Shown piece after piece: positions 1-28,230 of a stretch of 35,041 nucleotides of DNA. How positions within the stretch are numbered: position 1 is the stretch's first letter; each line of letters starts with the position of its first letter. The stretch lies in IMG/VR virus record IMGVR_UViG_2778261545_000002; one strand, given 5' to 3'. Made by a program: the position numbers and the translations under genes. This DNA comes from a virus (lineage: Duplodnaviria; Heunggongvirae; Uroviricota; Caudoviricetes). The notes below the pieces were generated by a model. The model was not told the origin of the DNA and made no database searches. It saw only the letters and a list, made by a program, of their open reading frames with translations.

Positions 1-1362
1 ATGTTTAAACCGGAACTCCTTTCCCCGGCGGGAACGCTGAAAAATATGCGTTACGCTTTCGCTTATGGCGCAGATGCTGTTTATGCGGGCCAGCCGCGTT
101 ATTCCCTGCGTGTGCGCAACAACGAATTCAACCACGAAAATCTTCAGCTCGGCATCAATGAAGCCCACGCGCTGGGGAAAAAGTTTTATGTCGTGGTCAA
201 CATTGCACCGCACAACGCCAAGCTGAAAACCTTTATCCGTGACCTGAAACCGGTGGTGGAAATGGGGCCGGATGCGCTGATTATGTCCGATCCAGGGCTG
301 ATTATGCTGGTGCGTGAGCACTTCCCTGAAATGCCGATCCACCTTTCGGTGCAGGCTAACGCCGTGAACTGGGCGACGGTGAAATTCTGGCAGCAAATGG
401 GCCTGACCCGCGTGATCCTCTCTCGCGAGCTGTCGCTGGAAGAGATTGAAGAGATCCGCAATCAGGTGCCGGATATGGAGATCGAGATCTTCGTTCACGG
501 CGCGCTGTGCATGGCCTACTCCGGTCGCTGCCTGCTCTCTGGCTATATCAACAAGCGCGACCCGAACCAGGGCACCTGCACCAACGCCTGCCGCTGGGAG
601 TACAACGTCCAGGAAGGGAAAGAAGATGATGTTGGCAACATCGTACACAAGTACGAGCCGATTCCGGTGCAAAATGTTGAGCCGACGCTGGGTATCGGCG
701 CACCAACCGACAAAGTGTTTATGATCGAAGAGGCCCAGCGTCCGGGCGAGTATATGACCGCGTTTGAAGATGAGCACGGCACTTACATCATGAACTCGAA
801 AGATCTGCGCGCCATCGCCCATGTAGAACGCCTGACCAAAATGGGCGTGCATTCGCTGAAAATCGAAGGTCGTACCAAATCTTTCTACTATTGTGCACGC
901 ACCGCACAGGTTTACCGCAAAGCTATCGATGACGCCGCTGCGGGAAAACCGTTCGATACCAGCCTGCTGGAAACTCTGGAAGGTCTGGCGCATCGTGGCT
1001 ATACCGAAGGTTTCCTGCGTCGTCATACTCACGACGATTATCAGAACTACGAATACGGTTATTCAGTTTCTGACCGCCAGCAGTTTGTTGGTGAGTTTAC
1101 CGGTGAGCGCAAGGGGGACCTCGCGGCGGTAGCGGTGAAAAATAAATTCTCCGTTGGCGACAGCCTTGAGCTGATGACGCCGCAAGGCAACATTAATTTT
1201 ACCCTTGAGCACATGGAAAACGCCAAAGGCGAAGCTATGCCGATAGCACCAGGCGATGGTTATACTGTGTGGCTCCCGGTCCCGCAGGATCTTGAGCTCA
1301 ATTACGCGCTGCTGATGCGTAATTTCTCCGGGGAAACCACGCGTAATCCCCACGGTAAGTGA
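1..1362 (+). CDS. yegQ: Host peptidase U32-family protein YegQ (TrhP), complete 453 aa
   Basis: ORF starts at ATG at position 1; translation MFKPELLSPAGTLKNMRYAFAYGADAVYAGQPRYSL... matches E. coli YegQ from memory, including length 453 aa. Confidence 0.88.
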   Translation: MFKPELLSPAGTLKNMRYAFAYGADAVYAGQPRYSLRVRNNEFNHENLQLGINEAHALGKKFYVVVNIAPHNAKLKTFIRDLKPVVEMGPDALIMSDPGLIMLVREHFPEMPIHLSVQANAVNWATVKFWQQMGLTRVILSRELSLEEIEEIRNQVPDMEIEIFVHGALCMAYSGRCLLSGYINKRDPNQGTCTNACRWEYNVQEGKEDDVGNIVHKYEPIPVQNVEPTLGIGAPTDKVFMIEEAQRPGEYMTAFEDEHGTYIMNSKDLRAIAHVERLTKMGVHSLKIEGRTKSFYYCARTAQVYRKAIDDAAAGKPFDTSLLETLEGLAHRGYTEGFLRRHTHDDYQNYEYGYSVSDRQQFVGEFTGERKGDLAAVAVKNKFSVGDSLELMTPQGNINFTLEHMENAKGEAMPIAPGDGYTVWLPVPQDLELNYALLMRNFSGETTRNPHGK

Positions 1363-8454: not shown

Positions 8455-8623
8455 TAACCTTTTAGAGTGTAATTTTCCAAGAAATATAGCATTATCAAAT
8501 TAGCAAAAGGCATTAGATGATTTTATATTCATTTCATTAGCCGCAAGTTAGGTATGGACCGATGAGAGATGATTACAGAAATCAGTCGGATCATTTTACA
8601 GTACTTTATGAGTGTGGATTGCT

Positions 8624-10420
8624 ATGAGTAAAACCTACCAAGAAATTATTACAGAACTGATTGATCGCATTTATCAAAAGAAGAATACATCAGAAACTAC
8701 TAAGATCATATTGAAAGCACACTTTACTCAGACATCTTCTAGCAGAAACTTGACCTTAGATACGCTGGGTAAACTACCTGAACTCAAGAAAGAGGTCACG
8801 AGAGAAAGAGCACGTCAGATCATATCAAAATTCTTAAATCAAGACTTGCCGTCAGAACTAAGTCGGCTCAACCGAGGCTTGGTAGCAGGTGATACGATTA
8901 CCCTAGCTGCGAAAACTGACCTTATTCAATTGAAGAAATTGATTGAAATATTAATCGGAAAAATAACGACCACTAAAAAACCAGTATTTTCAAATAAAGT
9001 CCAAAGCACTCTTATAGCAGCAGGTGTAATTGATAGTAACATTTATCTTCCTATAGTTACTCAGTTAGCAAAATCATTCGAAATAAATGCACATTTCAAA
9101 TTTCATGAATATAATGGACATCAAATCATACTGGAAGAAAATCATAATCCCAAATCCATTACTAGCGATTTAATCACATATGCCGGAAAGATATCAACGT
9201 ATTTTGGTGGTTTATTTTCAATAGAAAAACTTGCTGTTTGTTCATGGGAGTCAGACCCTCCTGGTTTTATTAGGGAAATTCCTGATGAAATTAAGGTGCA
9301 ATATATATCTGACTTAATTTCAACTGAAGAAGATTTTTTATCTATTTCTAATGGACGTTTTTATGCTTTCACGTCTCGTGACGAAAGAGTTAGTCGAATT
9401 CTCAAACCAATTTTTATTCATTATAAAAACCCACTAAAAGTTGAAAGAGTTATATCTGCTTTAAAAAGGGCCCTTACACACAACTTCCGTCGTAGTGCAG
9501 ATGCCCGTCAACCCCCCTGCCTAGAGCTTCTAGAAAGCGCCGATGGTGCTCTGGACGATTATTGTTTGAAAACTGGATTACTACAAGAGTCAACACCCGG
9601 TTATAGAATACCTGGAGATAGCCTTTATTCAGAACTCCAATTGGAAGATGTCAGTGGTACTATCCATTATCAAGTTATTGCCTTAAATGCTATAAAATCA
9701 AATGGTGGCCCCTTAGACTCAATGAGCATTGGTAGGGAATTAAAAGGGAAAATCCCGCAAGCTTTCAAATCATTGATTTTTAGTTATCCAACCTTGTATT
9801 ACAAAGAAGGTGGCGGGAGACGAAATGATTACTACAAACCACTTGATGATGAATATATTCCAACCAAGCAAGTGGCTCGGCCTATCGATACCAGAATGGA
9901 AAGAATAGATAGTATAAGAAGAAAAATAACAGACATCATAAGCGAATTGGATTCACTAGATGTGCTGGGAACCTTTTTAAGAAAGACTCGTGCAGAACAA
10001 GCATTACTTCGAGAATACCTGCTCCTTCAACAATCGCTGTTATATAGCAATGAAAATAATGTAGGGGTCTGTGAGATTTGCGGAAATTCATGGCCGCATG
10101 CTATTCTCATTGCTGCGCATGTGAAACCTAGATCTAAATGCACACATGAAGAGCGAGCAGATTTCGATAACATAGCAATGTTGCAATGTGCAATATGTGA
10201 TTCACTTTTCGAAAATGGTTTCATTGCCATTCGTTCAGATGGAAAAGTTGCAATTAGCCGAGATAAAAAAATGACCACACACCTTGCGCAAATGTATTCT
10301 ACAATCGAAAGAAGAACCATTCCTTACGTCAACGGAAACACAAACCGTATGAAATACATACAATACCATTGGGTGAATATATTCAAAGGTGAAAGTTCTT
10401 TATTTGATATTAAATCGTAG
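8624..10420 (+). CDS. Cargo protein in the P2 Z/fun hotspot: N-terminal sigma-70 region-4-like HTH plus C-terminal HNH (4-Cys, AHxxP-type) nuclease motif; candidate anti-phage defence or abortive-infection nuclease
   Basis: AT-rich ORF on the opposite strand to the flanking late genes. N-term ...TLDTLGKLPELKKEVTRERARQIISKFL resembles the sigma-70 r4 HTH; C-term CEICGNSWPHAILIAAHVKPRSKCTHEERADFDNIAMLQCAICDSLFENGF fits a C-x2-C...H...N...C-x2-C HNH. Start is ambiguous between GTG 8612 (track) and ATG 8624; neither has a strong Shine-Dalgarno. Confidence 0.7.
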   Translation: MSKTYQEIITELIDRIYQKKNTSETTKIILKAHFTQTSSSRNLTLDTLGKLPELKKEVTRERARQIISKFLNQDLPSELSRLNRGLVAGDTITLAAKTDLIQLKKLIEILIGKITTTKKPVFSNKVQSTLIAAGVIDSNIYLPIVTQLAKSFEINAHFKFHEYNGHQIILEENHNPKSITSDLITYAGKISTYFGGLFSIEKLAVCSWESDPPGFIREIPDEIKVQYISDLISTEEDFLSISNGRFYAFTSRDERVSRILKPIFIHYKNPLKVERVISALKRALTHNFRRSADARQPPCLELLESADGALDDYCLKTGLLQESTPGYRIPGDSLYSELQLEDVSGTIHYQVIALNAIKSNGGPLDSMSIGRELKGKIPQAFKSLIFSYPTLYYKEGGGRRNDYYKPLDDEYIPTKQVARPIDTRMERIDSIRRKITDIISELDSLDVLGTFLRKTRAEQALLREYLLLQQSLLYSNENNVGVCEICGNSWPHAILIAAHVKPRSKCTHEERADFDNIAMLQCAICDSLFENGFIAIRSDGKVAISRDKKMTTHLAQMYSTIERRTIPYVNGNTNRMKYIQYHWVNIFKGESSLFDIKS

Positions 10421-10618: not shown

Positions 10619-11146
10619 TTATTGCGGCATTTCCGGCCATTCAGGATTTGCAGGATCCACACGACTGACCACAACGCTGTAGCGTTCCCAAGCCTCCAGC
10701 CGTGTGCGCTCCTCCTCTGTTGCCATGTTCAGCCTGACAGCGCGCTCCAGCGGCAAAATCACGGATTCAGCATCTGCAAGAAGTCTGGCTTTCCGATTTT
10801 CTGCCTGCTGCTGCAATTCCTCTGCCGTATAAATTCGTTTAATCACTGTACCGTCCTTAAACATCCAGCCCCCTGAAATGTCCGCCCGTCGGTTAGCAGT
10901 AATATCCGGCACTTCAACAACACTTAATCCATCCGGTCTGATAGCTGTCACATCCTTTTCCACATAGCGGATAATATTATCTTTGTCGTACGCTATTTTT
11001 ATCGTGTCATCAGCAAAATACTTTTGTTCTTCGTACCAGTTCTTACCATCTTCTGAAAAAAACCAGACAACATCAAAGTCCTTTGTCAATTGATATTGTT
11101 CAACCGTTTTTGGATTACCTGCCGTTATATTTATCAAATGCTGCAT
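10619..11146 (-). CDS. G: Tail fibre assembly chaperone G (175 aa)
   Basis: 175 aa as in P2 gpG; immediately downstream of H. Confidence 0.8.
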
Positions 11147-11149
11147 AAA

Positions 11150-13468
11150 TTATACCTGCGCCACGTTATACCAAGTCCCGTTAATGTATTTCTGCACCGG
11201 TCTGTAATATACGCCACCAATGTTATCGGCAGAGTTTGAGCCGGTATCCTGAACAATAATGCCGGAATATACACACCCGGACGGTGCCTGATGTGTCCAT
11301 GTCATGCCATTGTTCGCAGGTTTGTATGTGGCAGCACCACCAAGCCGGATATCCCGGACATAGCGTGAATCAAAATTACTATAGTTAGATGGTGATACCT
11401 GCCCGTTAACAGCAAAAGTGATGCTGTTATCTGTATTTCTCTGACTGTAAAAATGCCAGCCTGCATCATCACCTAATTCAGCCACCACCGGACGACTTGA
11501 GTTTCCCCACAAATTGAATGCGGCTTCCTTCGTGGATGTATTGCTGCTGCTGACCGTGAACTTTTTCCCGCTACCGGCACGTACTTTGGTACTTGAGACA
11601 ATATCACCTGTAACACTCAGGCCATGCCCCATTGACACTCCGCCATTGGCGTTATTGATAGTCAGCGGCCTTAAACCGTTCCATGTCCCAAATTTATCGC
11701 CAGAGGCCGTCAGCATTAAATATGTGCTGCCGCCATCATTCCTGATAAAGAATCCATAATTGCCATAAGCAATGCGCAGACCATTAGCACTGAGTGATGT
11801 AATCTCACCTCTTGAACGGAGACCATAAGCGGAGCTGAGTGATAATTCTTCCTGAGCATCAGTATTACCAGTCGCCCAGCGAACTACCCCGCCCTGTACT
11901 GTTTCATGCCAGACAGTGTCTCCTTCTCCACCACGAAACTTTCTGAGATATTTTTTGCCGCCTCTGGTGCCTGAACATAAGGCCGTAGACATATAGGCAT
12001 TCTGGCTACCGCCGTCCTGATTAATCGTTCCGGTCATTTCGTCGCCCTGACGATTCCAGTCACGACGCCAGCCGGGGGAGTAGCCGTCCCCATGATTAAT
12101 GTAAGTGAATTGCGCGCTGGTTGTACCGCCACCACTTGATGTTGTCGGCGTGGTCACTCGGATAGTGATTGCAGATTTAATTCCCATGACCTCGACGACA
12201 CAACCAGCCAGGTGGATATCACCACATCCGGTATCCGTAATGATTTTGTTATTTGCATATGACCAGGAGCCTTTGCACATCCAGTACGGATGATTAAATG
12301 CACCACGGGAATCCAGCCATTCAATAAACTGAGCGGTTGTCCAGTTTCCGGCTTCAGTACTCAAAGCGCCGCTATAAGCACGACAGGCACCGATATTTTT
12401 CGTGAAGGTATCCTTTCCCGGAATATCCGCACCATTCTGATCTTTCTGAAGACGTTTTTCAGCATTGTCATAGGCAGACTTCACCGCTTTTGGTGTTGCG
12501 GCCAGTGTTTCAGAATCACTATTGGTGGCGCTACTTAGCTGGACAAGACCTTTTCGCGCGGTGGTGGCATCCTGTGCAGTGTATTTCCCGTTAGCAAGGT
12601 CATACGCAGCCTTTACCGCCTTTAGCGTTGCCGCAAGCGTTTCAGAATCACTGTTGGTGGCGCTACTGAGCTGAACAAGGCCTTTTCGCGTTGTGGTGGC
12701 GTCCTGTGCAGTGTATTTCCCGTTAGCAAGGTCATATGCTGCCTTTACCGCTTTCGGCGTTGCGGCGAGCGTTTCAGACGTGCTGTTGGTGGCACTACTG
12801 AGCTGGACAAGGCCTTTTCGCGCTATGGTGGCGTCCTGTGCGGTATATTTCCCGTTAGCAAGGTCATACGCGGCCTTTACCGCTTTCGGCGTTGCGGCCA
12901 GTGTTTCAGACGTGCTGTTGGTCGCACTGCTTAACTGAGTAAAACCTTTTGCGGTCAGCGAGGCGTCCGGGTGACGTCGTGACTGTTCGTGCTCTGCAAT
13001 TTTGTCATCAACGTAATCCTGCGTCGCCATCACCGTTGTGGTGTCAATGGTCAGCTCCACTGAGGCCACACTGCTGACGATGATGACCATGCGGCAGGTC
13101 TGCGAACGCCCTGAGCCTTCGGCAAGTGCGGGTTTATAACTTTCGGCCATGTTCGCCACGGCAATTAACGTTCCCGCATCATCGTACAGGCCAAGCTCAC
13201 GCATCCAGAAACCGCCCACCTCCGGCGGAATAACCAGCTCTGCGATAATATAATTACTGTTTCGTTTGTCCTGGCTGATTTTGTTCAGCGCATGTCGCCA
13301 GACTTCATGGATAAGCCCGGTCTGTCCGGCATCCGGGACAGGCAATTTACCACCGCCATCCCCGACGGCCATAGTGGTAATGTTGACCTTCCGCCCTCCC
13401 GGTGCGGTTGCCGCTGCCAGCTTTGCTGCACCGGCAGTGGTGATAACGGTTCTGAATTTTGTGCTCAT
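11150..13468 (-). CDS. H: Tail fibre protein H (772 aa) with internal tandem tail-fibre repeats
   Basis: Position between I and G; contains about 3.6 copies of a 44-aa repeat KGLVQLSSATNS[TD]SETLAATPKAVKAAYDLANGKYTAQDAT; longer than P2 gpH (669 aa). Confidence 0.85.
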   Translation of the reverse strand: MSTKFRTVITTAGAAKLAAATAPGGRKVNITTMAVGDGGGKLPVPDAGQTGLIHEVWRHALNKISQDKRNSNYIIAELVIPPEVGGFWMRELGLYDDAGTLIAVANMAESYKPALAEGSGRSQTCRMVIIVSSVASVELTIDTTTVMATQDYVDDKIAEHEQSRRHPDASLTAKGFTQLSSATNSTSETLAATPKAVKAAYDLANGKYTAQDATIARKGLVQLSSATNSTSETLAATPKAVKAAYDLANGKYTAQDATTTRKGLVQLSSATNSDSETLAATLKAVKAAYDLANGKYTAQDATTARKGLVQLSSATNSDSETLAATPKAVKSAYDNAEKRLQKDQNGADIPGKDTFTKNIGACRAYSGALSTEAGNWTTAQFIEWLDSRGAFNHPYWMCKGSWSYANNKIITDTGCGDIHLAGCVVEVMGIKSAITIRVTTPTTSSGGGTTSAQFTYINHGDGYSPGWRRDWNRQGDEMTGTINQDGGSQNAYMSTALCSGTRGGKKYLRKFRGGEGDTVWHETVQGGVVRWATGNTDAQEELSLSSAYGLRSRGEITSLSANGLRIAYGNYGFFIRNDGGSTYLMLTASGDKFGTWNGLRPLTINNANGGVSMGHGLSVTGDIVSSTKVRAGSGKKFTVSSSNTSTKEAAFNLWGNSSRPVVAELGDDAGWHFYSQRNTDNSITFAVNGQVSPSNYSNFDSRYVRDIRLGGAATYKPANNGMTWTHQAPSGCVYSGIIVQDTGSNSADNIGGVYYRPVQKYINGTWYNVAQV
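12470..12949. repeat. Tandem 132-bp repeat array (about 3.6 copies) inside H
   Basis: Near-identical 132-nt units visible in the DNA (e.g. 12550 vs 12682); they encode the 44-aa repeat on the minus strand and a mirrored repeat in the antisense track ORF 12693..12938. Confidence 0.85.
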
Positions 13469-25524: not shown

Positions 25525-27285
25525 ATGACTGTACGTCTTGCTTCAGTTTCAATTAGCAACTTTCGTTCTTGTAAGGCAACATCGGCTATTTTGCGCCCCT
25601 TTACTGCTTTAGTTGGTTATAATAACGCAGGAAAATCAAATATCATCTTAGCAATTAAGTGGCTGTTAGATGGCTCTTTGATTTCAGAATCAGATGTGTA
25701 CGATCCTACACACCCCGTATCCGTTGAAGGCGTTATTCAAGGTATAACAGATGATACTCTATCTTTGTTAACAGAAGAGAATCAACAAAAAATAGCTCCG
25801 TTTATAATTGACGGGACTCTTACCTTTGCAAGAAGACAGGAATTTAATAAGGAAACAGGAAAAGTCAAAAAAAGTCTGGATGTATATGATGGCACCACGT
25901 GGAAGAAAAACCCTGGCGGCATAGATGGTGCAATTTCCAATATATTTCCGGAACCAATTCATATCCCTGCAATGTCTGACGCCGTCGAAGACTCAACAAA
26001 ATGTAAAAATACGACCACAATAGGAAAGATACTTTCCGCAATTGTTTCTGAAATAAAGCAAGAGCACGAAGAGAAATTCTCAAAAAATATATCAGAAATA
26101 GGTAAATATCTTTCTCACAACGGTGAGAACAGATTAGAAAGCCTTAATAAAATAGACTCGGGTGTAAATAAAAAAGTAAACCAATTTTTTCCTGACGTAA
26201 GTGTAAAGTTACACTTTCCCACACCGACATTAGATGAAATATTTAAATCCGGAACCCTGAAAGTTTTTGAGTCTCGGGAAGATGAACCAGTAATGAGAGA
26301 TATCAGCCGATTTGGTCACGGAACACAACGTTCCATTCAAATGGCATTAATTCAATACCTGGCCGAAATAAAAAAAGAAAACAGCGAATCAAAAAAATCA
26401 AATACTTTAATTTTCATTGATGAACCTGAGTTATATTTACACCCTTCAGCTATTAATTCTGTCAGAGAATCACTTGTCACATTAAGTGAATCAGGGTATC
26501 AGGTTATAATATCAACTCACTCAGCCAGTATGCTTTCTGCAAAGCACGCAGCAAATGCGATTCAGGTTTGTAAGGATTCTAATGGAACCATAGCAAGGAA
26601 GACCATATCTGAAAAAATCGAAGAATTATATAAGTCTTCATCACCGCAATTGCACTCAGCATTCACACTATCAAATTCATCATATTTCTTATTTTCAGAA
26701 GAAGTTTTGCTTGTTGAAGGAAAAACAGAGACAAACGTCCTATATGCACTTTATAAAAAAATTAACGGACATGAACTCAACCCAAGTAAAATCTGCATTG
26801 TTGCCGTTGACGGTAAGGGTAGTTTATTTAAGATGTCACAAATCATCAATGCCATTGGTATAAGAACAAGAATTCTAGCTGATTGTGATTTCTTATCAAA
26901 CATCCTATTAACAGAGCATAAAGACTTACTTAGTACTGAATGTGATAATCTCTTGACTGCTTTGACTGAATCAATCAACTCAGGCGAGCTTAATTTAAAT
27001 ACAAAAGTCACTACTTTTGAGTCATTCAAAAGCATTTCAAGCAAAGACTTCATCAAAATATGTAATCATGAAAAAACACAAAAACATATACATGAAATCC
27101 ATCAAAAATTGAAAGATAATGGAATCTATATATGGAAATCCGGTGATATAGAAGCTGTTTATGGATTTGGTAAAAAACAAACTGAATGGGATAGTCTTTT
27201 AGATTGTTTATGTGATGAAAGCAAAGATGTTAGAGCAGTAATAAAAAAATATGATGAAATGGAAGATTTCATTAAATGGATTTAA
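25525..27285 (+). CDS. old: OLD-family ATPase/Toprim nuclease (P2 Old-like, 586 aa)
   Basis: Walker A GYNNAGKSN, Walker B-like LIFIDEPELYLHP, Toprim-like LVEGKTE and ADCDF motifs; AT-rich; RBS AAGGA upstream of the ATG; same length and position as P2 old. Confidence 0.8.
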   Translation: MTVRLASVSISNFRSCKATSAILRPFTALVGYNNAGKSNIILAIKWLLDGSLISESDVYDPTHPVSVEGVIQGITDDTLSLLTEENQQKIAPFIIDGTLTFARRQEFNKETGKVKKSLDVYDGTTWKKNPGGIDGAISNIFPEPIHIPAMSDAVEDSTKCKNTTTIGKILSAIVSEIKQEHEEKFSKNISEIGKYLSHNGENRLESLNKIDSGVNKKVNQFFPDVSVKLHFPTPTLDEIFKSGTLKVFESREDEPVMRDISRFGHGTQRSIQMALIQYLAEIKKENSESKKSNTLIFIDEPELYLHPSAINSVRESLVTLSESGYQVIISTHSASMLSAKHAANAIQVCKDSNGTIARKTISEKIEELYKSSSPQLHSAFTLSNSSYFLFSEEVLLVEGKTETNVLYALYKKINGHELNPSKICIVAVDGKGSLFKMSQIINAIGIRTRILADCDFLSNILLTEHKDLLSTECDNLLTALTESINSGELNLNTKVTTFESFKSISSKDFIKICNHEKTQKHIHEIHQKLKDNGIYIWKSGDIEAVYGFGKKQTEWDSLLDCLCDESKDVRAVIKKYDEMEDFIKWI

Positions 27286-27468: not shown

Positions 27469-28230
27469 ATGAATAACATGGAGATTTTGAAAGCCGTAAA
27501 AGCTGGAATGAAAAAGTCAGCCAAAGCTACTTATTTAATGGATTTCAGTTCCGGTGGAAAAATAAACACTGAATATGTAGCTACCGTATCTATAGGTCAA
27601 TCCTTGATTAAAATAACATCTTTTCATCATGGTGATTACAAGATCATATTTGAATACCATACAAATAAATTCATTAATGCAACAGTCCCTTTATCGAAAC
27701 GGCATGACCCCAACAATATATTCTCAAGACACATTATCAGAAAAAATGCAAACACAAAAAGACCAGGCAGAATCGATATTGCCATATTGGACAGTAGATC
27801 ATTTTTCGAGACTCCTATATGTGCAATAGAAGTTAAAGGAAACAACCCTAGTAAAAAACTTTTATTTTCTGACATAAGAAGAAATCTTGAATACTTTAAA
27901 CACACAGGTCCTACGGGGAGTTCAAGCCTTGAACTAGCATTAAACTGTTTATTCCATTCATACAATGATTCAACTAAAAAAAATTACTGCACTACAATCC
28001 ACCATAAGGAAGACATGATAAGGAAATTAAAAAACAAATATAAAAAATACATATCTGAATTAAATAAAGAAATTCCAGATGATATATCTGTTACAATTGA
28101 TGTTTTTACAGCAGCAGAGCATTTACTATCTCCTGATGCTGACCAATATGAATACGAATCACATATAGATGACTTACATTTGACGCTTGGCGTTATGGTT
28201 ATATTCGAACGAAAATCGATACTCAATTGA
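27469..28230 (+). CDS. tin: Tin-like protein (253 aa), assigned by position; possible PD-(D/E)xK-like motif
   Basis: AT-rich ORF directly after old, where P2 carries tin; RBS AAAGGAG; GRIDIAILD...ICAIEVK resembles a D...E-x-K nuclease core, but this is a weak motif-level call. Confidence 0.5.
   Translation: MNNMEILKAVKAGMKKSAKATYLMDFSSGGKINTEYVATVSIGQSLIKITSFHHGDYKIIFEYHTNKFINATVPLSKRHDPNNIFSRHIIRKNANTKRPGRIDIAILDSRSFFETPICAIEVKGNNPSKKLLFSDIRRNLEYFKHTGPTGSSSLELALNCLFHSYNDSTKKNYCTTIHHKEDMIRKLKNKYKKYISELNKEIPDDISVTIDVFTAAEHLLSPDADQYEYESHIDDLHLTLGVMVIFERKSILN

Follow-up and report, generated by a model that had tools for sequence, protein, structure and literature searches.

Gene H of a P2-like prophage codes for a tail fibre protein with a tandem 132-bp repeat array, and lies in a 35,041-nt stretch of viral DNA (IMG/VR record IMGVR_UViG_2778261545_000002, hereafter the window). 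This locus raises the question whether the array is a recent, readily changing element that switches fibre length and host range, as an earlier note on this DNA had proposed, or an old and stable part of the fibre. The relevant features, given in window coordinates, are:

11150-13468, minus strand: gene H, tail fibre protein of 772 amino acids, P2-like prophage (ORF with PF12571, four PF03406 and PF21446 matches)
12962-13468, minus strand: N-terminal baseplate-anchoring domain, H residues 1-169 (PF12571)
12830-12961, minus strand: repeat unit 1, residues 170-213, of a 'first-unit' type opening with SLTAKGFTQ (unit HMM)
12698-12829, minus strand: repeat unit 2, residues 214-257, internal (unit HMM)
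12566-12697, minus strand: repeat unit 3, residues 258-301, internal, with a rare Pro-to-Leu exchange at residue 282 (unit HMM)
12434-12565, minus strand: repeat unit 4, residues 302-345, terminal transition unit (unit HMM)
12389-12436, minus strand: conserved junction motif NGADIPGKDTFTKNIG, residues 345-360 (similarity break at H nt 1040-1048)
12005-12469, minus strand: segment resembling the variable part of Mu S', residues 334-488 (PDB 8ju3 residues 177-333, 236.8 bits)
11153-11851, minus strand: putative distal receptor-binding region, residues 540-772, comprising a Gp34_trimer-like domain and a Mu S-like C terminus
10619-11146, minus strand: gene G, tail fibre assembly chaperone partnering the distal part of H (PF02413 Caudo_TAP, E = 9.2e-34)

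The gene order V-W-J-I-H-G at the H locus is that of a P2-like prophage, and a 99.8% identical prophage of E. coli SBF45 has the order I-H-G, with H annotated as 'tail fiber protein' and gene G, directly downstream of it, as 'tail fiber assembly protein'. In a Pfam search PF12571 spans H residues 1-151 (E = 1.6e-58) and PF21446 residues 540-604, and PDB entry 5yvq matches residues 545-771, the E value of 5e-61 referring to the whole chain. The N-terminal domain is conserved in all relatives, with an amino acid identity of at least 99% in 80 viral contigs. With a tail-collar fibre domain (PF12571) at its N terminus that is homologous to that of P2 gpH and the order J-I-H-G with a Caudo_TAP chaperone gene downstream, H is a P2-type gpH. 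Homology to P2 H and Mu S, together with the literature (PMC7460101, PMC11915804), suggests that H makes up the six trimeric virion fibres and would bind the receptor via its C-terminal part.

Tandem Repeats Finder reported a period of 132 at 12467-12910/12968 with 3.4-3.8 copies, 85-88% matches and a score of 612-671. The 132-bp array is real, and the coordinates given for it in the earlier note, 12470-12949, fall inside its true extent, 12434-12961; the quoted peptide motif was correct as well. In the protein register there are four in-frame 44-residue units (H residues 170-345, window 12961-12434, minus strand). The 44-residue period is strict across genera. Searching the six-frame translation of the whole window with the unit HMM revealed no further copies beyond these four. 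The Pfam family PF03406, 'Phage tail fibre repeat', matches four stretches in H with 252.9 bits, compared to a cut-off of 22, and an E value of 8.6e-77, demonstrating that the repeat is far beyond chance, and each unit covers about 41 of the 42 model positions. H thus belongs to the family both by passing the gathering score and by carrying units of about 40 residues repeated within a tail-fibre protein. The Ser/Thr/Asn-rich loop SSATNSxSE of the repeat is highly conserved. At the position of residue 282 within the unit Pro is found in 293 of 301 units, and Leu occurs only in unit 3 of this array and in one further locus, L031. Unit 4 departs from the repeat consensus near residue 333 and continues as ...SAYDNAEKRLQKDQN.

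An AlphaFold2 monomer model of H residues 150-360, calculated from a 30-sequence alignment, had a mean pLDDT of 43.6 and a pTM of 0.21, too low to be of use. In a sequence search of the PDB with the repeat region, the Mu S entries were the only ones to contain a unit, a single one in the deposited sequence. PF03406 was listed in 2021 among the families without known structure (PMC8078820), and cryo-EM work on Mu built only 'the N-terminus' of gp49 (PMC11915804). Our literature search yielded nothing specific on the structure of the repeat or on copy-number effects, and no description of a fixed order of distinct units (first, two internal, terminal) was found in the accessible literature. On the plus strand, two ORFs run antisense to the array (12290-12538 and 12693-12938); both are short and without evidence of being genes, and they look repetitive only because the underlying DNA is repetitive.

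The units had been described as near-identical, which holds for their protein sequences but not for their DNA, as units 1-3 are 76.5-87.9% identical. Unit 4 shares 61-70% identity with the others over 132 nt and 71-84% over the first 96 nt. Nor are these near-perfect DNA repeats, the longest in-register exact run between units being 35 nt; runs of 26-35 nt, which are present, are about the minimum for RecA-dependent exchange. Unit-versus-unit comparison gave a dS of 0.41-1.23 and a dN/dS of 0.06-0.18, most differences being synonymous, as compared to a median dS of 0.077 (maximum 0.114) between the orthologous N-terminal domains of 81 related phages. The supposed recent expansion, deduced from few substitutions between units, is contradicted by these values. 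Units at the same position are 92.6-95.2% identical across phages, versus 59-90% for units at other positions: unit 1 has a mean identity of 95.2% to unit 1 elsewhere and of 59-80% to other positions, and unit 2 is 92.6% identical to unit 2 of other phages and 89.5% identical to unit 3, within and between phages alike. As the units are closer to same-position units elsewhere than to their neighbours the duplication must be old, and the agreement of within-phage and between-phage identities indicates that there is no concerted evolution. The array is ancient, every unit has its own positional identity (first, two internal, terminal transition), and purifying selection acts on the protein sequence of each of them.

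We then determined the number of units among relatives, using loci collected through the N-terminal domain alone so that the census was unbiased by the repeat. Among 76 close relatives 16 arrays contain two units, two contain three, 48 contain four and ten contain five; in other genera of the Enterobacterales we counted one unit (n = 7), two (n = 8), three (n = 6) and four (n = 1). Some E. coli H proteins carry six units, so that P2-type H overall ranges from one to six, and the invariance across relatives that the earlier note had named beforehand as evidence against its proposal was not found. In other fibre proteins a nearly identical unit reaches 11-12 copies; in the PF03406 family at large 2059 cluster representatives match one unit, and the 150 best-scoring representatives listed have 2 to 17 matched stretches per protein. 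In five-unit arrays unit 2 or unit 3 is duplicated, and neighbouring copies reach 96-98% identity; unit 3 is missing from three-unit arrays, and one array has identical units 2 and 3 (adjacent-unit identity is 98% in locus L030, 96% in L026 and 100% in L052). Locus L048, with five units and 816 residues, shares its backbone with this H (94-99% identity in most 132-nt bins, 74-78% in three), and in a Buttiauxella array an internal unit was duplicated independently. Internal units have thus occasionally been gained and lost in several lineages, and E. coli P2-like prophages most often have four units.

Within an allele class, however, the length is constant. Each of the best 60 E. coli genome matches to H is a single ungapped alignment of 2319 nt with 97-99.8% identity, the array with its flanks measures 801 nt in all eight sampled full-length matches, and the 12 members of the 772-residue class all have the same length and the pattern first-internal-internal-terminal. 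The four types of post-array module have typical copy numbers of 4 (34 of 35 loci), 2 (17 of 17), 4 (15 of 15) and 5 (9 of 10), only two of 77 loci departing from the number typical of their distal module. Since copy number follows the distal module type, its change must be rare, arguing against a fast switch: the anticipated variation does exist among relatives, but it is infrequent and the number is stable within an allele class. The four-unit arrangement is stably inherited along with its distal module, an association that could result from common descent alone.

The position of the array within H is that of a mosaic joint. The main mosaic boundary between H classes lies at residues 347-350, in agreement with a map of 132-nt bins, and in the P2 class similarity collapses at residue 237, within unit 2. 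A break in similarity between P2 and L-413C at residue 207, also within the array, is mentioned in PMC7460101, citing Garcia 2008. The N-terminal domains of the 77 loci form one sequence cluster and the post-array parts four; the array lies exactly where the one N-terminal module, which is conserved, gives way to several distal modules unrelated to one another. Nucleotide diversity is higher in the array (0.061) than in the distal part (0.031) or the N-terminal domain (0.015), and seven of the eight differences to the nearest viral relative fall in the array, five of them within 34 nt. Polymorphism is significantly concentrated at sites that differ between paralogous units, suggesting that gene conversion within the array may be a source of the raised diversity, a signal that is confounded because sites under weak constraint will differ between paralogues and will also stay polymorphic. 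Unit matches occur in 1816 of 5426 E. coli genomes, at a median of two and up to 11 places per genome, and include lambdoid 'prophage tail fiber N-terminal domain' proteins. The idea that a former invertase crossover site persists at this junction was rejected, as a search with gix/hix site sequences gave no match there above the window-wide background. The gene order of the window contains no invertase-like ORF; thus neither the crossover site nor the invertase gene of an invertible segment of the Mu G or P1 C type was found.

P2 gpH (NP_046775) occupies the same place in the order I-H-G, shares the N-terminal domain and the first unit with this H and has a downstream chaperone of the same family, and the DNA of P2 H is 94-99% identical in 132-nt bins over nt 1-660, with a megablast match to nt 726 at 96.8%. 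It contains, however, only two units, the first and a P2-type terminal one, and its distal region has little DNA similarity to H, being identical only in the last eight residues, TWYNVAQV. The lengths of 772 residues for H and 669 for P2 gpH given in the earlier note are right, and since P2 has two units the two extra units account for 88 of the 103 additional residues of H, the remaining 15 coming from the different, non-homologous distal region. The same four-unit H allele is found in the E. coli SBF45 prophage (99.8% over the whole gene) and in the Yersinia phages vB_YpM_46, vB_YpM_115 and vB_YpM_117, H of vB_YpM_46 being 97.2% identical over nt 1-2129, with the last ~190 nt of the Yersinia phages outside the match. 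In the Mu fibres S and S' (PDB 5yvq, 8ju3, 9ki1) the same KD(Q/R)NGADIP junction motif is found, in Mu S directly behind its one PF03406 unit and in Mu S' at the start. H also resembles Mu in its distal part, with residues 334-488 matching Mu S' and residues 545-771 matching Mu S, but Mu has only one unit and possesses an invertible G segment. Other proteins of the PF03406 family (Phage_fiber_2), which comprises lambda Stf, E. coli K-12 StfR, P2 gpH and Mu S, likewise carry the repeat in a tail-fibre protein in variable copy number, so that there is no essential difference to the family at large, the H array having a fixed order of positionally distinct units.

Based on these data the most likely role of the array is that of a shaft spacer and recombination joint. 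The four PF03406 units would constitute the proximal shaft of the trimeric P2-type fibre, between the N-terminal baseplate anchor and the receptor-binding distal half. Each unit would add a fixed length to the shaft, and the number of units would thereby set the reach of the receptor-binding tip. The conserved repeat DNA, which further prophage fibre genes in these genomes also contain, may provide the homology for swapping distal modules, and rare out-of-register exchange at this DNA would add or remove a unit. We consider this account as a whole, with old, stable shaft repeats acting as spacer at a mosaic joint, probable.

An extension of this account, that the number of units is selected to fit the distal module (2, 4, 4 and 5 units) and that synonymous divergence between units is maintained as a guard against deletion, appears rather unlikely; if true, the array would be a tuned, recombination-proofed spacer with homology still sufficient for the exchange of P2-, Mu- and lambda-type modules. 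Alternatively, the array might be kept mainly as DNA homology, as a recombination linker whose encoded peptide has little structural role. Its location at the mosaic boundary, the homologous units in several prophage fibre genes per genome and the raised, patchy nucleotide diversity are compatible with this idea, but the peptide has hardly changed despite free divergence at synonymous sites, whereas selection for DNA identity would produce the reverse, and with the strict period across genera this makes a pure linker improbable. Strong purifying selection and the highly conserved loop would suit adhesin-like, ligand-binding modules whose copies increase avidity for a surface sugar beyond any effect of length. 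Fibres with four unrelated distal modules, Mu S and proteins with other N-terminal domains all contain almost the same unit, and an element so conserved is unlikely to set specificity; moreover, it is the C-terminal part that is held to confer specificity on P2-type fibres (PMC7460101), and the units adjoin the baseplate anchor, distant from the tip, rendering binding modules quite improbable.

The recent, near-perfect array that readily changes copy number by slippage or unequal crossing-over, and thus switches fibre length and host range, is very improbable and largely refuted for this array. Relatives do vary between one and six units, the near-identical adjacent units in L030, L026 and L052 demonstrate that duplication or conversion does occur, and in-register exact runs are present. 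Against this stand the divergence of the units, their positional orthology without concerted evolution, the prevalence of four copies, the constant length in the best 60 E. coli genome matches and the 12 class members, and the rarity of departures from the module-typical number. Contingency repeats varying by slippage are likewise tandem and in frame with copy numbers differing among relatives, but the H units, at 132 bp, are long, with an identity of 76-88% they are not near-identical as in hypervariable repeats, and their number is stable within the allele class. Finally, although short-read assemblers can collapse or expand 132-bp tandem repeats, a mis-assembled unit number is hardly credible, as units differing by 12-24% can be placed individually and the same four-unit gene is carried by one complete E. 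coli chromosome with 99.8% identity and, with at least 97%, by dozens of further complete genomes and by isolated Yersinia and E. coli phages.

Being old, stable and common among related prophages, the four-copy array is ordinary, and it is already known biology: the repeat is a curated Pfam family, and many complete E. coli genomes as well as isolated phages carry the H allele with an annotation as tail fibre protein. That P2 H is a mosaic shaped by horizontal exchange was reportedly described in 1992 by Haggard-Ljungquist et al. (J Bacteriol 174:1462), a paper in the reference list of PMC13100340. What our analysis adds is the correction to an old four-unit arrangement of position-specific, conserved units inherited with the distal module, and the finding that the array marks the joint where distal modules are exchanged. 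For the engineering of P2/P4 or pyocin fibres this could guide the choice of fusion points and shaft lengths.

The minus-strand ORF at 11150-13468 (772 aa) is the H gene in a P2-like prophage. E. coli SBF45 has a prophage of 99.8% identity in which the genes follow the P2 order V-W-J-I-H-G, succeeded by the sheath, tube and tape-measure genes, and many complete genomes and isolated phages carry the H allele annotated as 'tail fibre protein'. Tandem Repeats Finder detected a period of 132 at 12467-12910/12968 (3.4-3.8 copies, 85-88% matches, score 612-671), which lies in frame within H and resolves in protein register into four 44-aa units, with unit 4 departing from the repeat consensus beyond about aa 333. 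An HMM derived from the units matched exactly these four in a six-frame translation of the window, and no further copies. The tandem repeat reported in the earlier note is genuine, and the peptide motif quoted there is right.

Features of H and of the gene after it
H aa 1-151, minus strand: PF12571, tail-collar fibre N-terminal domain (Pfam)
H aa 170-213, 214-257, 258-301 and 302-345 (window 12961-12434), minus strand: units 1 to 4, all PF03406 (Pfam)
H aa 345-360 (window 12389-12436), minus strand: conserved motif NGADIPGKDTFTKNIG after the last unit, marking the chief mosaic boundary among H classes
H aa 540-604, minus strand: PF21446, Gp34_trimer (Pfam)
10619-11146: gene after H, Caudo_TAP assembly chaperone (Pfam)

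The array had been described as near-perfect DNA repeats, but units 1-3 are just 76.5-87.9% identical in DNA, near-identity being limited to the protein. Unit 4 shares 61-70% with the others when compared in full and 71-84% in its first 96 nt, and the longest in-register exact run is 35 nt (units 2 vs 3). Differences between units are mostly synonymous (dS 0.41-1.23, dN/dS 0.06-0.18, Nei-Gojobori); the units, members of PF03406, are under strong purifying selection.

Relatives were gathered via the N-terminal domain of H alone, so that the sample is unbiased as to repeat number; it comprised 80 IMG/VR contigs whose aa identity in this domain is 99% or higher, 23 loci from other Enterobacterales genomes, and P2. 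In the orthologous N-terminal domain the dS between the window H and 81 phages is 0.077 at the median and at most 0.114, 5-15 times below the dS between units of the window's array. Among 42 distinct four-unit arrays same-position units average 92.6-95.2% identity across phages and different-position units only 59-89.5%, and the identity matrices within phages equal those between phages. The units are therefore positional orthologues without concerted evolution. Their duplication took place before these E. coli P2-like phages spread, and the recent expansion proposed for this array is refuted by both the dS values and the positional orthology.

Copy number differs among relatives, as had been suggested, and the 44-aa period is kept without exception among the best 120 protein matches.

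Units per array
P2 H (669 aa): 2 units
76 complete close relatives: 2 units (n=16), 3 (n=2), 4 (n=48), 5 (n=10)
22 loci from other genera: 1 unit (n=7), 2 (n=8), 3 (n=6), 4 (n=1)
Best 120 protein matches, a set skewed towards the four-unit query: 3 units (n=37), 4 (n=52), 5 (n=28), 6 (n=4)

Four units is thus the commonest state and no unusual expansion. The array keeps a fixed plan, with a 'first' unit, then n internal units, and at the end a 'terminal' transition unit that is of one of two types; gains and losses fall on internal units: five-unit arrays have unit 2 or unit 3 duplicated (up to 96-98% identity between adjacent copies), three-unit arrays are without unit 3, and in one four-unit array units 2 and 3 are identical. 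A Buttiauxella prophage has two internal units that are 92% identical to each other and 76-79% to E. coli internal units, a duplication independent of the E. coli arrays. The related locus L048 encodes five units (816 aa) on an H backbone shared with the window, with 94-99% identity in most 132-nt bins and 74-78% in three. Such change happens, but rarely. Sorted by post-array sequence type, the arrays have four (34/35), two (17/17), four (15/15) and five units (9/10), and all 12 members of the window's 772-aa class have four. Each of the best 60 matches in complete E. coli genomes (97.0-99.8%) is one ungapped 2319-nt alignment. In a search with the array plus its flanks, 8/8 sampled full-length matches measure 801 nt. 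The constant length in these matches and in the class speaks against a fast copy-number switch.

The array is flanked by a conserved anchor on one side and by exchangeable distal modules on the other. In 77 loci, a single cluster (≥80% identity) takes in all the N-terminal sequences (507 nt); the 300 nt beyond the array separate into four clusters unrelated to one another, and the 3' ends into six. The window H loses its similarity to other classes at H nt 1040-1048 (aa 347-350), directly past KDQNGADIP, the motif after the last unit, and to the P2 class within unit 2 (aa 237). In Mu, NGADIPGKDTFTKNIG likewise ends the constant part of S and opens S'. A search with gix and hix sequences showed no such DNA site at this junction (H aa 345-360), with no match above the window-wide background. 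The distal half is a mosaic related to Mu fibres: the S' part of PDB 8ju3 aligns with residues 334-488 (236.8 bits), and residues 545-771 correspond to Mu S (5yvq), which carries a single PF03406 unit followed by NGADIP as in the window H. P2 tail-fibre segments are reportedly swapped horizontally with Mu, P1 and lambda, as recognised since 1992. For phage L-413C, a passage in PMC7460101, citing Garcia et al. 2008, places the break with P2 H at aa 207, also within the array.

Signs of exchange are found in the array itself. In the 772-aa class the array has a nucleotide diversity of 0.061, as against 0.015 for the N-terminal domain and 0.031 for the distal portion. Of the viral relatives L031 is nearest, with 8 differences in the 2319 nt of H; 7/8 fall inside the array and 5/8 are packed into 34 nt of unit 4 (window 12488-12521, minus strand; H nt 948-981), a cluster resembling a short patch recombined in from a different unit-4 allele. 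At H aa 282 in unit 3 (window 12623-12625, minus strand) Leu replaces the Pro of LAATPKAVK, which is present in 293/301 units examined; Leu at that site is limited to the window and L031. Array polymorphism reaches 50% at offsets where paralogous units differ vs 9% elsewhere, and at four-fold degenerate sites 78% vs 36% (p = 4e-5), with minor alleles there equal to the major allele of a paralogous unit in 35/43 cases. This pattern, confounded by differences in site constraint, suggests inter-unit exchange or out-of-register exchange between phages. Homologous units occur in 1816/5426 complete E. coli genomes (median of 2 places per genome, maximum 11), lambdoid side-tail-fibre genes among them.

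Other genes of the window were assigned as follows.

1-1362, plus strand: gene of the peptidase U32 family, at the left window edge and adjoining the tail gene cluster
8612-10420, plus strand: ORF of 602 aa whose C terminus has an HNH nuclease motif
25525-27285, plus strand: homologue of the P2 defence gene old (PADLOC Old, E 1e-214)
27469-28230, plus strand: homologue of the P2 defence gene tin (E 8.7e-100)

Both old and tin are carried by P2 as well, and the peptidase gene presumably belongs to the host chromosome beside the prophage. The 602-aa ORF has a Pfam HNH_2 match at the cut-off and weak ones to PADLOC HNH and type II restriction-enzyme models; its SBF45 counterpart is annotated just 'HNH endonuclease signature motif containing protein'. 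As it lies between G and the sheath gene, the position that fun(Z) occupies in P2, it may be an anti-phage cargo gene.

A single unit used as query matched 2059 cluster representatives in a library of 1.84 billion proteins, and some fibre proteins hold 11-12 nearly identical units. In proteins P0121-P0124, fibres with up to 11-12 copies, 44-aa units alternate with 58-aa units containing a APSSHTHPWNQITGVPTA insert with a His-x-His motif. Two loci labelled Vagococcus sp. (L011) and Chryseobacterium sp. (L017) carry a typical enterobacterial P2-type H (75-79% identity in the N-terminal domain), and these assemblies are probably contaminated or mislabelled. An AlphaFold2 monomer model of the array region gave a pLDDT of 43.6; two papers describe PF03406 as little known (2012, PMC3368898) and among families without known structure (2021, PMC8078820).

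The array belongs to a curated repeat family, lies in a well-studied gene and is as such already known. Its units are old and positionally distinct, with internal ones gained or lost now and then. Each unit would be a fixed added stretch of trimeric shaft, so that unit number would set the reach of the fibre tip, while the conserved repeat DNA may provide homology for distal-module swaps and its out-of-register pairing may cause the rare changes in copy number.
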